A stretch of DNA of 64,000 nt from a phage: sequence record PX915678.1. One strand, written 5' to 3'. Below are positions 29,558 to 34,293 of this stretch, piece after piece. How positions within the stretch are numbered: the first letter of the stretch is position 1; the number at the start of each line of letters is the position of its first letter. The translations under genes and the position numbers were made by a program. The notes under the pieces are model-generated. The model was not told the DNA's origin. It did no database searches and saw only the letters and a list, made by a program, of their open reading frames with translations.

Positions 29558-29560
29558 CAA

Positions 29561-29590
29561 TGGGGACCGAAAGGTCCCCATATTTTTATT
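29561..29590 (+). terminator. intrinsic terminator after gene 54
   Basis: TGGGGACC-GAAA-GGTCCCCA hairpin followed by TATTTTTATTT. Confidence 0.75.
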
Positions 29591-29876
29591 TACGGAATGA
29601 AATGAAAGCAGCAACTGAAGCAACTAAACTGTCTTCAATATAAACTTCAATTTTTACCGGAGCTTCTGACTCAAATTTACCTGTTACTACACCTTGGAAA
29701 ATGCTTTCAGTCTGTTCTGGCTTTGAAAAATTTTCAGAAGGAAAAATTCCGAACTTTTTATCTGTTCCAAAAATTTTGATAAATTCATCATAAACTGCTT
29801 CATTAAAAGCGTTATCAGCAGGAATAACGCCTTCAACTACAAGTTCTTGACCTAAAAAGCGTAAAGAAGATTTCAT
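29586..29876 (-). CDS. hypothetical protein (alt-downstream ORF)
   Basis: 96-aa ORF immediately downstream of an early-promoter cassette. Confidence 0.6.
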   Translation of the reverse strand: MKSSLRFLGQELVVEGVIPADNAFNEAVYDEFIKIFGTDKKFGIFPSENFSKPEQTESIFQGVVTGKFESEAPVKIEVYIEDSLVASVAAFISFRK

Positions 29877-29907: not shown

Positions 29908-29937
29908 ACTATAACACAACACGAGGGACTTGTAAAC
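29908..29937 (-). promoter_or_regulatory. early sigma70-type promoter, repeat copy 1
   Basis: Minus strand GTTTACA - 17 nt with TGt - TATAGT; the -35 overlaps the stop of the alt paralogue. Confidence 0.65.
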
Positions 29938-31994
29938 TACATCTTGAACTTTTTAGACATTCCGTTGATGTTAACCAAAGAAGCCAAGATTTGAGAAACT
30001 TCGTTTTCCTCTTCTTTTGATTCTTCTACAAGGAATTGATTAAATCCAGCCATTGGACGAACTTCACCAGTTTCCATTAGATGATCGCCATCATATACCG
30101 ATTCTTCTAATTGTTCAGAAGGAGGAACGATTGTGCCTTCGATTAGATACTTGTTATAAGCAGTTTCTTTCATCATGTACGTGCTTACTTTATTAATCTT
30201 CAACAAAATTCCACGCGGTAGAATAACTTCAGCTTCTGATGGAAATCCTGATAAATGACCTGGAACGATAACTTTAATTCGCTCAGCTCCTTTTATTACC
30301 ATACCTACGCTAGTTTCAGCATCTTCATTCGCATAAGCAGAGTGACTACCCATATGCATTAAATCTTCAGCATCAACTGAACCTTCTCCTTCGCCAGAAA
30401 ATACTGCACCGGAATCATCTAGAGCCATATAGTTTTTACCATGCTCACCGAAGATATTTGGTTTAAGTGATGTGGATACGAAGTTCTTGAAATAGAACAT
30501 TTTGTTTTCAATATTATGACGTAAAGTTTTAAAAGTAACTTCTTGTCCACGATAAAGCGTAGTTCCTGGAGGAAGAACTGATCCTTTGGCGAATGCAGAA
30601 TCCATCGTCTCGATGTGTTTAATAGCTCGTTCCATGTATTCTTCACGGGTAGAATCTGGTTTACCCAAGAGGAACGAGTTCATTTCAACATATGAATCTG
30701 CACAATAATCTTCTATTACATCAGACTCAGCCTGAGTTAATCCTTTTGGAGTTACTTCGGTGCTTGCGTATTCATATGCCTGAGCAGCAGATTCATTAAT
30801 TAATTTATAAATGCCATTCATGACAAATTGAATAATAGCTACCTTTTCGTCTGGCGTGGCTTTAGAACCTTTAACTAAATCATTGATAATTTTTTTAATA
30901 ACATCAAAGCTATTAGAAATATTAATGTCAGCGAGATCGCTCAAAATTTTATCGGTTTTATAATCAAAAAATTCTTTATTCTTTAAATATTCTTGAGAAC
31001 CTTGATGTGTTATATCGCTCTGCAGTCTGATAGACGGATCACGTAAACGTGCATGGGCCAATGCAATATGATTTCGGAAGCTTTCTAGTTCATAATCGTT
31101 AGATTTAAAACGAGAAGCACTTCTCATACCACCGATAGCTCCTTTGCCGAAGTTTGAACCAATCTGAATAACGCCAGAGTTCATTGGTCCTTCTGCTTTA
31201 TATACCGGAACTTTAGATTCAAACTCTTGATATTTCTTAGCAGCGAAGCTATCGCCCTGGAGTGAAGCATCGACAGTAGAATATTGAGCTTGTGCTGCTA
31301 ATCGACGACTAATTTTAGTTTTCTGAATAACAGCTTGATCCGTGCGCTTATCATTTTCTAAAGCAATAGAAGCAGCAACAGCAACAGCTTTAGGAACAGC
31401 ATTACCTGTTTTGACATCTACATAAACATCACCAACCTTTGATTCAACTTTTGTGAATAACTCAGTTGAAATAGGAGGTACACCTGGAATGTCTTCTAAA
31501 TTGGCATTTTTACGGTAAACCATAATATATGCATACTTTTTATCGTAATCCCAGATTTCCTTTAAAAGAACATATCGACCTGCTCCTTTAGTACGTACTA
31601 AACGGTCAGCAATAACTTGCATTTGACGAGCAGCTCCATTTGTTTTACTTTTTAGTACGCGGAATAGGCATGCGTCAATTTTATACTGTTTCATTGTTTG
31701 AAGAGCAGTATCAAAAACCGCATTAATGACACCAATTGGATTTCCACCCAAGTTTTTAAGTTTAACTAATGATAGTTTCTCATTAACACCTATCATTACG
31801 ATATGCATCATTTTATCGCCTGGCTTAACGTTTTTATTTGTATCACCGCCAGAGGTGTATGTACAAAATCTAAATCCAGGAAGCACACTTTCTTCGCCGG
31901 CTTGAATAGCAAAAATTTGAGGTATTTTATGCTTAGGATTTAAGTTAACAACCGGCGCCGAAGCGCCGTCAAATAATTCTGTAATAAGTTCCAT
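29937..31994 (-). CDS. Alt-like ADP-ribosyltransferase, diverged tandem paralogue
   Basis: 685-aa ORF; N-terminus MELITELFDGASAPVVNLNPKHKIPQIF parallels the upstream alt; retains R/STS/ExE motifs (TLYRGQ...FVSTSLKPNIF...SEAEVILPRG). Confidence 0.88.
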   Translation of the reverse strand: MELITELFDGASAPVVNLNPKHKIPQIFAIQAGEESVLPGFRFCTYTSGGDTNKNVKPGDKMMHIVMIGVNEKLSLVKLKNLGGNPIGVINAVFDTALQTMKQYKIDACLFRVLKSKTNGAARQMQVIADRLVRTKGAGRYVLLKEIWDYDKKYAYIMVYRKNANLEDIPGVPPISTELFTKVESKVGDVYVDVKTGNAVPKAVAVAASIALENDKRTDQAVIQKTKISRRLAAQAQYSTVDASLQGDSFAAKKYQEFESKVPVYKAEGPMNSGVIQIGSNFGKGAIGGMRSASRFKSNDYELESFRNHIALAHARLRDPSIRLQSDITHQGSQEYLKNKEFFDYKTDKILSDLADINISNSFDVIKKIINDLVKGSKATPDEKVAIIQFVMNGIYKLINESAAQAYEYASTEVTPKGLTQAESDVIEDYCADSYVEMNSFLLGKPDSTREEYMERAIKHIETMDSAFAKGSVLPPGTTLYRGQEVTFKTLRHNIENKMFYFKNFVSTSLKPNIFGEHGKNYMALDDSGAVFSGEGEGSVDAEDLMHMGSHSAYANEDAETSVGMVIKGAERIKVIVPGHLSGFPSEAEVILPRGILLKINKVSTYMMKETAYNKYLIEGTIVPPSEQLEESVYDGDHLMETGEVRPMAGFNQFLVEESKEEENEVSQILASLVNINGMSKKFKM

Positions 31995-31997
31995 GAT

Positions 31998-34055
31998 TTA
32001 TCCTTGAACGAACTTGTAAGGCATGTTTGTAATATCTATGCAAGACGCAATAATTCCAAGAGATGATTCTACTTTTTGTTTAACATTTGATGAAACAAAT
32101 GATGCAAAGTCAACTCTGTCTTCTATTTCAATATCACCTGTCATTGCAACTACTTCACCAGTTTCCATTAGACGATCACCGTCATAAATTACTGATTCGG
32201 TGAGTTCTTCCGTAGTCATAACTTCAGCTTGAATAAGCTTGTTGTTAGTTTTAGCTGTTCCATCATTGTAAGATGCATCGGTTATTTTATTAACTTTGAC
32301 CATTAATCCACGTGGTAAAATGACTTCCATTTCATTTGAAGGCGCTAAACTTCCACCTGGTAAAACAACGTTGACTTTATCAGCCCCAGTAATAACCCAT
32401 CCAATTCCAACTAAATTATCGCTAGAATTAACAAGTCCTTCATCGTTTTTATCGATAGAAATGTTTAGACGCTTTTCGTCTGGTAAAACACCCACAGCTG
32501 AATCAGTCATCCAAGTACCAAAAATGTTTGGATATAATGATGTTGATACAAAATTTCTAAAATAAAAAACTCGATTTTTTACCAATGCTTCATATATTGA
32601 AGGTAACATTCGCTGTGAACGATATAAAGTAATACCTTTTGGCAGTCGATCACCATTTTTAAAGGCTGAATCTAAATTATCGATGGCTTGTTCTATTTCT
32701 GGTGCTGTTAAAATACTTGTACGTTCATCTGGATTATATAATCCCAAAAGAGCATTATTCATGTCTACATATCCTGAACCTACGTATTCACGAATTCCAC
32801 GTTTTTGTGCCGGTGTGTATTTAGACGGATCTTTATTTTCGACTATAGAATGCAATGACCATCCAACGGTAAGAGCATATCCACGTAATTCTCTTCGAAT
32901 AATCTTTGTTTTTATTGCATTCCAAGAATTTTGTACTAACTCATTCGCAGCATCTTGATTTAAATGCGAATGCTTGTTAATATTTCTTTCTAACCAAGCA
33001 CCTTTATATTTTTCTAAAGTATCATCGACTATAGAAGCAATAGTTTCTAAAGTTTTTATTGAAGTAATAGATTCTTTTCGTAATCTTTCTAAAGCTTTAT
33101 TTTTTATTTCTGCATTAACATCAGATTCTTTATCTTCAGGAATTATAGAAGCTTCTCTGAATGCCATTCCAGCTGTAACACTATTAAGAGCATTCTCTAA
33201 TGCAAATCCTGAAGTAGAAATAACAGTTAATTCATTAGCATCAGAAATTAAAGGCGCGTCAGCGGGTTTATTTAATTCTGCTGCTGAAGCCTCAAATTTT
33301 TGAAACATTGGTGTTTCAAATCTGGAAGATTCTAACGATTGACTTTGTGCAATTGCTCTACGGGAAATTTTAACTTTAACGATTACAGCTTGGTCAGAAC
33401 GTTTATCGTTTTCTTGTGCAATAGATGCTGCAATTGCCTCATTTTTAGTTACTTGAGCTCCGGTATCTTTATTGATATAAACATCACCGACTTTCGATTC
33501 AACTTTAGTAAAGAGCTCGGTACTAATTTCCGGAACTCCTGGAATGTCTTCTAGTGATACATTTTTGCGATGTATAAGAATATATGCATACTTTTTATCG
33601 TAATCCCAGAGTTCCTTAAGAAGGACGTATCTGCCACCTGAACGACTACGGATAAGTCTATCAGCAATAAGTTGAATTTGACGAGCTTGACCAGCAGTTT
33701 TAGACTTAAGAATACGGAGCATGCAGGCATCAATTTTATACTGACGCATCGTCTGCATCGCAACAGTAAAAACTGAATTGATGTAATTAATTGGGCTTGG
33801 ACCGAGACCTTTTAATTTAGCAATTGAACCTTTGGCAGTTAATGTAAAAGGAACAATATGCATCATTTTATCGCCCATCTTTAAATCGCGATTAGTATCA
33901 CCTCCAGATGTATAGGTACATAAACGAAAGCCTGGCTGTTCAATTGCGTCATCAACATGAACTGAAAAAATTTGTGGTATTTTCTTCTTTGGATTTAAGT
34001 TTGTAATCGGAAGAGTAGTATCTTCGTCAAATAATTCTGTAATGAGTTCCATCAT
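31998..34055 (-). CDS. alt: ADP-ribosyltransferase Alt (packaged internal head protein)
   Basis: 685-aa ORF recalled as very close to T4 Alt; ART motifs YRSQ...FVSTSLYPNIF...EMEVILPRG; minus-strand TATAAATA upstream. True start may be the second Met (34052). Confidence 0.93.
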   Translation of the reverse strand: MMELITELFDEDTTLPITNLNPKKKIPQIFSVHVDDAIEQPGFRLCTYTSGGDTNRDLKMGDKMMHIVPFTLTAKGSIAKLKGLGPSPINYINSVFTVAMQTMRQYKIDACMLRILKSKTAGQARQIQLIADRLIRSRSGGRYVLLKELWDYDKKYAYILIHRKNVSLEDIPGVPEISTELFTKVESKVGDVYINKDTGAQVTKNEAIAASIAQENDKRSDQAVIVKVKISRRAIAQSQSLESSRFETPMFQKFEASAAELNKPADAPLISDANELTVISTSGFALENALNSVTAGMAFREASIIPEDKESDVNAEIKNKALERLRKESITSIKTLETIASIVDDTLEKYKGAWLERNINKHSHLNQDAANELVQNSWNAIKTKIIRRELRGYALTVGWSLHSIVENKDPSKYTPAQKRGIREYVGSGYVDMNNALLGLYNPDERTSILTAPEIEQAIDNLDSAFKNGDRLPKGITLYRSQRMLPSIYEALVKNRVFYFRNFVSTSLYPNIFGTWMTDSAVGVLPDEKRLNISIDKNDEGLVNSSDNLVGIGWVITGADKVNVVLPGGSLAPSNEMEVILPRGLMVKVNKITDASYNDGTAKTNNKLIQAEVMTTEELTESVIYDGDRLMETGEVVAMTGDIEIEDRVDFASFVSSNVKQKVESSLGIIASCIDITNMPYKFVQG

Positions 34056-34075
34056 ATCCTCTCTAGTGTTTATTC

Positions 34076-34083
34076 TATTTATA
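34076..34083 (-). promoter_or_regulatory. late promoter (TATAAATA, minus strand) for alt
   Basis: Plus-strand TATTTATA about 21 nt upstream of the alt ATG. Confidence 0.65.
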
Positions 34084-34090
34084 AAATTAA

Positions 34091-34104
34091 AGGCCCGAAG
34101 GCCT
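34091..34104. terminator. GC hairpin between alt and the 62-aa ORF
   Basis: AGGCC-CGAA-GGCCT stem-loop flanked by AT-rich sequence. Confidence 0.45.
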
Positions 34105-34293
34105 TTAATAATCTATTGGTAAGAGAGTACGATATATTTCAAACTTTGGACCTTTTTCATAGGTATCAAATGTTTCTGTGAATTTATTATAAGCATATGC
34201 ATCTATAAATTCAATCATAATTTGTGATACAGAAGTAGAAACATCTCCGCCTTCTTTTTGAGCAACGACAATTGTTTCTAAGTAAGCTTTCAT
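34105..34293 (-). CDS. hypothetical small protein
   Basis: 62-aa ORF whose stop lies just before the alt late promoter; start overlaps the ligase stop. Confidence 0.55.
   Translation of the reverse strand: MKAYLETIVVAQKEGGDVSTSVSQIMIEFIDAYAYNKFTETFDTYEKGPKFEIYRTLLPIDY

Follow-up and report, generated by a model that had tools for sequence, protein, structure and literature searches.

A selectively maintained second alt gene in the alt operon of T-even phages, and its remnant in phage T4

The 64,000-nucleotide (nt) stretch of phage DNA analysed here (sequence record PX915678.1, hereafter "the window") belongs to a T4-like (Tequatrovirus) genome, with Shigella phage pSs-1 as its closest record (98.6% nt identity over 4.9 kb), and carries on its minus strand two adjoining genes for Alt-type ADP-ribosyltransferases (ARTs). 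What lies here is the alt operon as T-even phages (genus Tequatrovirus) normally have it, with two genes: canonical alt and, behind it, alt2, an old paralogue maintained by selection. T4 is the exception among T-even phages, having lost most of the second copy. For the product of alt2, sequence features point to a role that we consider reasonably probable, namely that of an arginine mono-ART expressed late from the two-gene operon, packaged, trimmed by the gp21 protease and injected, with a substrate range different from that of Alt.

The two genes correspond to open reading frames (ORFs) of 685 residues each in the ORF list (31998..34055 and 29937..31994), and the junction between them reads TAA-atc-ATG, i.e. 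a gap of 3 nt. A preliminary description of this DNA, made from the sequence alone, had reported exactly such a pair of adjoining minus-strand Alt-type ORFs, and only the upstream start needs to be moved, by one codon. The upstream ORF begins MMELITE, and its second ATG, at 34052, is better spaced from the GAGG box (Shine-Dalgarno) and corresponds to the annotated start of T4 and pSs-1, so that the gene probably spans 31998..34052 and encodes 684 residues, the ATG at 34055 not being the start. The extra methionine (window 34053-34055) is annotated in the AR1 and PaulHMueller records and absent from the T4 and pSs-1 annotation. Gene order across the locus (gene 30/alt.1, alt genes, alt.-3/gene 54) agrees with T4, T2, and pSs-1. 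Both products have a mass of about 76 kDa and the same domain architecture, as follows:

31998..34052, minus strand: alt, canonical Alt of the T4-type allele, 684 residues, 96% identity to T4 Alt; N-domain at residues 1-238, helical middle at 239-410, ART domain at 411-620, acidic tail at 621-684; catalytic residues R478, STS in FVSTSL at about 503-505, and E574/E576.
29937..31994, minus strand: alt2, 685 residues, the "alt.-2" of the RB32/T6 records and the "Alt2" of BASEL phages; N-domain at residues 1-238 (nt 31281-31994), helical middle at 239-415, ART domain at 416-625, acidic disordered tail at 626-685; catalytic residues R482, S507-T-S509, and E587-A-E589.

Alt and Alt2 align end to end (BLASTP E = 5e-158, 41% identity). 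Identity to T4 Alt is 96% for the upstream product, which the preliminary description had placed very close to that protein, and 41% for the downstream one, and the N-terminus said to be shared by the two (MELITELFD...NLNPK.KIPQIF...C.YTSGGDTN) reads as claimed. Both proteins match the PF03496 family (ADPrib_exo_Tox; 117.9 bits for Alt and 72.8 bits for Alt2, with a cut-off of 23.4), and both are covered over their full length by phrog_802, "Alt-like RNA polymerase ADP-ribosyltransferase" (878 bits for Alt and 851 bits for Alt2, residues 1-685). Precomputed annotations of the Alt2 cluster representative (P0001, 99% identical) and of all full-length relatives likewise include PF26846 (Tevenvirinae_ADPRT) along with PF03496, and a search of NCBIfam gave no match for either protein. 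The three catalytic motifs of R-S-E enzymes can be read in both copies, as the preliminary description had stated: the R motif is TLYRSQ in Alt (R478) and TLYRGQ in Alt2 (R482), the STS motif FVSTSL is common to both, and the ExE motif is EMEVILPRG in Alt and EAEVILPRG in Alt2. In an alignment of 20 relatives, the R, both S and both E of Alt2 are invariant. The pairwise alignment of the two ORFs with T4 Alt, alt.-1, and alt.-2, which had been proposed as a check, thus returned a full-length pair with its catalytic residues kept rather than an inactive pseudogene.

Similarity between the paralogues is distributed very unevenly. Identity is 55-82% in the N-domain (residues 1-235), 7-22% in the middle region (residues 238-400), and 7-17% between STS and ExE (residues 513-545), where Alt2 is acidic (11 D+E versus 2 K+R) and carries an insertion relative to Alt. 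Compared with T4 Alt, Alt2 is therefore alike in length, domain order, N-terminal peptide, R/STS/ExE motifs, a conserved YDGDxLMETGE motif and operon, and unlike in overall identity, in the sequence of its helical region and acidic STS-ExE stretch, both unrelated to those of Alt, and in its C-terminus (...KKFKM in Alt2, ...KFVQG in Alt).

An AlphaFold (AF2) model of Alt2 has a predicted local distance difference test score of 72, with most of the ART core at 75-90, and consists of an alpha/beta N-domain (residues 1-220), an all-helical region (230-470), an ART beta-core (480-622), and a low-confidence acidic tail (629-685). A Foldseek search of the PDB with this model retrieved Vis (4xzj, E = 3.5e-7), Certhrax, C3bot, CDTa, VIP2, and iota Ia, with 1gzf, 1qs1, and 2wn8 among the matches; the matches to R-S-E toxins had a probability of 1.0 and a TM (template modelling) score of about 0.6 on target length. 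A sequence search of the PDB with Alt and Alt2 gave no match at E <= 0.01, which left no solved structure of Alt for comparison. On the model, the ART domain of Alt2 is of the C3/VIP2-like R-S-E fold, and the C3-like, VIP2, iota/CDTa, and Vis toxins would share both catalytic fold and motifs with it.

Selection on alt2 was evaluated by comparing orthologues from eight Tequatrovirus phages (the window, pSs-1, T2, T6, RB32, AR1, REP2, and PaulHMueller). Across these, the Alt2 protein is 98-100% identical, synonymous divergence reaches 0.31, and the Nei-Gojobori ratio of nonsynonymous to synonymous divergence (dN/dS) has a mean of 0.042 (28 pairs, dS 0.20), with values of 0.029 in the N-domain, 0.067 in the middle, 0.033 in the ART domain, and 0.027 in the tail. 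The alleles of canonical Alt gave 0.060 and 0.061. Because the protein is this well conserved despite synonymous divergence, and given the low dN/dS, the substitution pattern marks alt2 as a constrained coding gene under strong purifying selection in every domain rather than a decaying one. It is very improbable, in our judgement, that Alt2 is a pseudoenzyme, whether as a structural protein of the head core without catalysis or as a decaying duplicate: its PF03496 score does lie below that of Alt, and T4 shows that the gene can decay, but R482, S507/S509, and E587/E589 are invariant in 20 sequences, dN/dS is low in the ART domain itself, about 400 genomes carry an intact gene, and the predicted ART fold matches NAD-bound toxins. 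Reading alt2 as a pseudogene or decaying copy was accordingly rejected, on its overall dN/dS and its invariant catalytic residues.

The duplication itself is old. In Dhakavirus MX01, which like the window has tandem alt copies spaced by 3 nt, the third copy (MX01_c) is the positional orthologue of Alt2, to which it is 50% identical and with which it shares the ...KFKM end, and the first copy groups with Alt. Since the third copy thus pairs with Alt2 and the first with Alt, these sequences place the duplication before the split between Tequatrovirus and Dhakavirus. The middle copy of MX01 is about 49% identical to both of its neighbours, and is a third effector type. A further protein, P0009 (694 residues, 74% identity to Alt2), is a diverged allele of Alt2 with an N-domain about 90-100% identical and a middle and ART region at 35-90%, so that Alt2 is not strictly monomorphic in nature. 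The longest contig for P0018, an Alt-type protein, is 14,051 bp, as for P0009, and the two may be encoded on one contig.

The gene order in T4 is alt, alt.-1 (61 residues), alt.-2 (67 residues), alt.-3, and the note in its GenBank record already traces alt.-1/alt.-2 to a duplication, long ago, of the beginning of alt. In a blastn comparison, T4 is colinear with the window apart from the segment 29957-31646, which is flanked in the window by the two copies of a short direct repeat:

31647..31655, minus strand: direct repeat CTAAAAAGT (9 bp), upstream copy; the deletion behind T4 alt.-1/alt.-2 has its 5' breakpoint here.
29948..29956, minus strand: downstream copy of the same 9-bp repeat, 3' breakpoint, 1,699 bp from the upstream copy.

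T4 keeps one copy of CTAAAAAGT at the junction, and the 1,699 bp between the repeats are gone. What is left, alt.-1/alt.-2, matches the initial ~116 codons of Alt2 at 95% nt identity, and the families built on T4 alt.-1 and alt.-2 (phrog_23015 and phrog_15247) match Alt2 residues 1-56 and 62-117 more strongly than they match Alt. An additional frameshift near codon 55 splits the T4 remnant into two small ORFs. Hence, from comparison of the sequences, T4 alt.-1/alt.-2 and the intact window gene occupy the same locus, and the former are the 5' remnant of alt2 after a microhomology deletion that removed residues ~117-680. This settles a question that the preliminary description had left open, namely whether T4 holds an intact equivalent at this position: it has none. 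Salmonella phage SG1 shares the deletion junction of T4 and has a stop at codon 6 instead of the frameshift, a pattern that indicates one deletion followed by independent decay in T4 and SG1. The opposite polarity, i.e. an "apparent insertion in alt.-2" as worded in the RB32/T6 records, was rejected: a deletion in T4 is the better reading, given that the full-length gene is colinear with Alt, that a Dhakavirus orthologue exists, and that the T4 junction sits on a single copy of the 9-bp repeat.

The T4-type deletion junction was found in 91 of 499 phage records. The segment that T4 lacks occurs, complete, in 402 phage records, e.g. T2, RB32, RB9, AR1, PP01, and PST, to which a protein search adds T6 as a carrier of Alt2. 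About 402 records hold Alt2 at 90% amino acid identity or more. At the protein level, 403 records have a best match to Alt2 of at least 80% amino acid identity, nearly all of them at least 95%, and the next relatives are at 49% or below. About 80% of related phage records therefore carry the pair, and the earlier impression that it is unusual was not borne out. An identical pair in T4 and all its relatives, which the preliminary description had named as an outcome that would count against it, is close to what these records hold (402 versus 91), with T4 itself being without an intact copy. Annotations of Alt2 include "Alt-like RNA polymerase ADP-ribosyltransferase", "NAD(+)--arginine ADP-ribosyltransferase", and "ADP-ribosyltransferase Alt2", along with the "alt.-2" with apparent insertion of RB32/T6; the annotated second alt genes of Tequatrovirus (RB32/T6, BASEL "Alt2", T2_202) are orthologues of the window Alt2 at 98-100% amino acid identity. 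The number of alt copies in T4-like phages varies as follows:

Dhakavirus MX01 (ORF194-196; L004:864-7124): three full-length copies in tandem, with 3-nt gaps.
Most Tequatrovirus, Ac42 ("alt gene duplication"), and 44RR (reported in Nolan et al.): two copies.
Krischvirus: one full copy and a shorter ART gene.
Sampled records of Mosigvirus and of Klebsiella T4-like phages: one matching place in each.
Melville: a single gene split by a frameshift; the gene is split in ZZ1 as well.

The alt pair of Ac42 (including Ac42 alt.-1) differs from the one described here in being transcribed the other way round with respect to gene 30. Duplication of alt was described by Nolan et al. in 2006, including that of 44RR (ORF187c) (PMC1524935), alt duplications and a split gene were reported in the ZZ1 genome paper of 2014 (PMC4177764), and a genome paper of 2026 noted two paralogous Alt-like proteins of 43% identity in one Tequatrovirus and proposed divergence of their targets (PMC13600099). 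The alt/alt2 pair is thus already known, being annotated and discussed, with the same "diverged targets" reading in print; in the literature searched, we found nothing published on what the second alt copy does.

Within Tequatrovirus, the variable copy is canonical Alt. Two alleles with 73% identity to each other can be distinguished, a T4-type (window, pSs-1, AR1, T4) and a T2-type (T2, T6, RB32, REP2, PaulHMueller, SG1), with cassette counts of about 175 and about 324 records, respectively. The alleles are about 100% identical at residues 1-230 and from 606 to the end, 17-35% identical at 240-400, and 60-70% identical in the ART domain, an alignment pattern that identifies their difference as a replacement of the central cassette (window 32193-33338). 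In its ART region, the T2-type allele shares 85-100% identity with the first copy of MX01, against only 40-50% between the N-domains, which suggests that the effector part of Alt has been exchanged laterally between genera. Judged by these alignments, canonical Alt is the variable copy across phages and Alt2 the more conserved one. The statement that the downstream copy is diverged across its middle consequently holds with respect to Alt (7-22% at residues 238-400), but casting it as "the diverged one" inverts the population picture, in which Alt2 is conserved at 98-100% and Alt is dimorphic at 73%.

Probable recombination between the two genes is also visible in metagenomes, where four proteins (P0003, P0004, P0005, and P0007) consist of an Alt-type N-terminus joined to the rest of Alt2, i.e. 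A1N::A2 chimeras. Their genes are located as follows:

L014:5001-7055, L015:4001-6061, L016:4001-6061, and L017:4001-6061, on metagenomic T4-like contigs: a single chimeric alt gene in each.

The crossovers lie at four different points in the N-domain (residues ~45, ~100, ~180, and ~220), each within 8-14 nt of identity. L014 and L015 are long contigs, of 65 kb and 110 kb (k = 99 was used to assemble the longer one), on which no alt gene other than the chimera lies between alt.1 and alt.-3; in such single-copy chimeras, the alt promoter is followed by the Alt2 effector alone. The chimeras point to unequal crossovers between the tandem paralogues that dropped the Alt effector and kept that of Alt2. 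An assembly artefact was judged unlikely, considering the crossovers in 8-14 nt of identity and the contig assembled with k = 99. The junction of the P0005 type occurs in no isolate genome of the phage collection, so that the chimeras are known from assemblies only. They suggest that the Alt2 effector is no dispensable appendage of Alt, although single metagenome contigs do not prove viability. Either effector can be removed by a simple recombination event.

Signals for the expression of the two genes were identified at the upstream end of alt and at the junction:

34076..34083, minus strand: T4-type late promoter core TATAAATA, from exact-match search and sequence context.
34089..34106, minus strand: hairpin rich in GC (AAAGGCC-TTCG-GGCCTTT, then AATTTTAT) that overlaps the alt.1 homologue's stop codon, read from the sequence.
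32001..32005, minus strand: Shine-Dalgarno AAGGA of alt2, within the last codons of alt and 6 nt ahead of the Alt2 ATG.

The core at 34076-34083, upstream of the first copy, is the sole exact match to TATAAATA on the minus strand near the alt locus, and the same exact-match search found none between alt and alt2, in agreement with the earlier observation that only the upstream copy has a late promoter of its own. This supports a single late promoter serving alt and alt2 as one putative late transcription unit. The 3-nt gap between stop and start, together with a Shine-Dalgarno site that falls within the final codons of alt, further suggests translational coupling from alt to alt2. The hairpin region (34070-34125, minus strand) has a predicted RNA fold of -15.2 kcal/mol (z = -3.8 versus shuffles), and the hairpin, which was not listed by a simple terminator scan, appears to be a terminator-like element that would shield the alt operon from early transcription upstream.

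What Alt2 may do can be approached from T4 Alt. In T4, gpAlt is present in the prohead scaffolding core in about 40 copies, and the gp21 protease removes a small N-terminal peptide from it (PMC9958956). Alt is then injected together with the DNA, and its ADP-ribosylation substrates are one RNA polymerase alpha subunit, modified at Arg265, and other proteins (PMC9958956; PMC2988021). The first nine residues of Alt and Alt2 are identical, including the MELITE peptide with its I-T-E (I-x-E) site. In the role we propose, Alt2 would be made late together with Alt, and its shared N-terminal module (MELITE, with the I-x-E site for gp21) would carry it into the prohead scaffolding core. It would be trimmed there by gp21, enter the host with the phage DNA, and mono-ADP-ribosylate arginines on host proteins, as its ExE motif would predict.

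The YDGDxLMETGE motif is common to Alt and Alt2, with LMETGE at window 30063-30080 (Alt2) and 32154-32171 (Alt). It is kept in the Tevenvirinae alt paralogues compared, with a weaker form in Ac42 and in the Krischvirus protein, and within it lies a second (L/I)-x-E site, matching the type that the prohead protease of T4 cleaves; the acidic tail of ~45 residues behind the motif is predicted to be disordered. LMETGE may be a C-terminal processing site of Alt paralogues; for gpAlt, the review cited above gives N-terminal trimming only (PMC9958956). If gp21 cut at both sites, an Alt2 of about 70 kDa would be left.

The main alternative to this route is that Alt2 is an active ART made late which stays unpackaged and acts in the producing cell, on host or phage proteins. 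The present data would fit packaging and cytoplasmic action equally, T4-type phages also use the non-packaged ARTs ModA and ModB (PMC2988021), and the determinant of Alt packaging is undefined (PMC9958956). We nevertheless think this unlikely, as the pro-peptide would be hard to explain otherwise, the nine identical residues including the I-x-E site. The N-domain, 55-82% identical to that of Alt, is also under the strongest constraint (dN/dS 0.029) and is hardly met outside the ART proteins of T4-like phages: a profile of it retrieved 73 clusters among 1.84 billion representatives, and 55 of the 61 long members also carry PF03496. The same figures led us to reject the Alt N-domain as a general delivery module mounted on varied effectors, and this profile search identifies it instead as an Alt-family feature. 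Four distant proteins (P0180, P0182 of 1142 residues, P0183, and P0187) have an Alt N-domain and no Pfam-detectable ART in the remainder, which may hold other effectors.

In C3-like enzymes, the substrate-contacting loops lie in the helical region and between STS and ExE. These are the two parts of Alt2 that are unrelated in sequence to Alt, and we therefore propose that the substrate range of Alt2 would differ from that of Alt, the most economical reading of this pattern. Alternatively, Alt2 could be largely redundant with Alt, serving as a back-up or for dosage against the same targets (RNA polymerase alpha Arg265 and others), as the shared architecture, arginine-type ExE motif and operon would allow, and as would fit the loss of either effector in nature (T4-type deletions on the one hand, A1N::A2 chimeras on the other). 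Such redundancy strikes us as improbable, however, for two proteins with 41% overall identity and an unrelated helical region and STS-ExE stretch, separated by a duplication older than the Tequatrovirus/Dhakavirus split, and lasting purifying selection on both copies is unexpected for simple redundancy.

Several points weigh against an injected Alt2 with substrates of its own. The localisation of Alt in the core has been called "mysterious" (PMC9958956), and the packaging role given here to the N-domain is an assumption. Our literature search turned up no virion proteomics or biochemistry for Alt2, the structural model is only moderately confident, with the substrate loops among its weaker parts, and the 91 records without Alt2, T4 included, show that it is dispensable at least under some conditions. 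Overall, we still rank the alternatives (not packaged, redundant, or catalytically dead) below a packaged and injected Alt2 with different substrates.

Downstream of alt2, the leftward gene block ends with the following features:

29908..29936, minus strand: early-type sigma-70 promoter-like site TTTACA-17 nt-TATAGT with an upstream TG, consensus match only.
29586..29876, minus strand: alt.-3 homologue, 96 residues, DUF5498 (PF17602, E = 1.4e-64), with T4 alt.-3 in the same position.
29560..29581, both strands: bidirectional intrinsic terminator with a 9-bp stem (6 GC pairs), between the alt.-3 homologue and gene 54.

The alt.-3 homologue is the final gene of this block, and gene 54 converges on it. 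Since the promoter-like site lies directly behind the Alt2 stop codon, ahead of the alt.-3 homologue, the latter may be transcribed early, apart from the late alt operon.

That the pair exists is no discovery, and its practical value is modest. Functional knowledge of Alt comes entirely from T4, one of the minority of T-even phages lacking Alt2, and Alt2 has never been studied in this model phage because T4 lost residues ~117-680; T2, T6, and the BASEL phages are thus the right systems in which to ask what a second injected ART would do. More speculatively, and with clearly less confidence than we place in the role proposed above, Alt2 rather than Alt might be the conserved injected ART of T-even phages, modifying host proteins that Alt leaves alone, with the effector of Alt being an exchangeable cassette, present as two alleles and traded between genera, on a delivery module that stays constant. 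If this were true, the textbook account of immediate-early host takeover, built as it is on T4 with its 1.7-kb deletion, would miss one injected effector.

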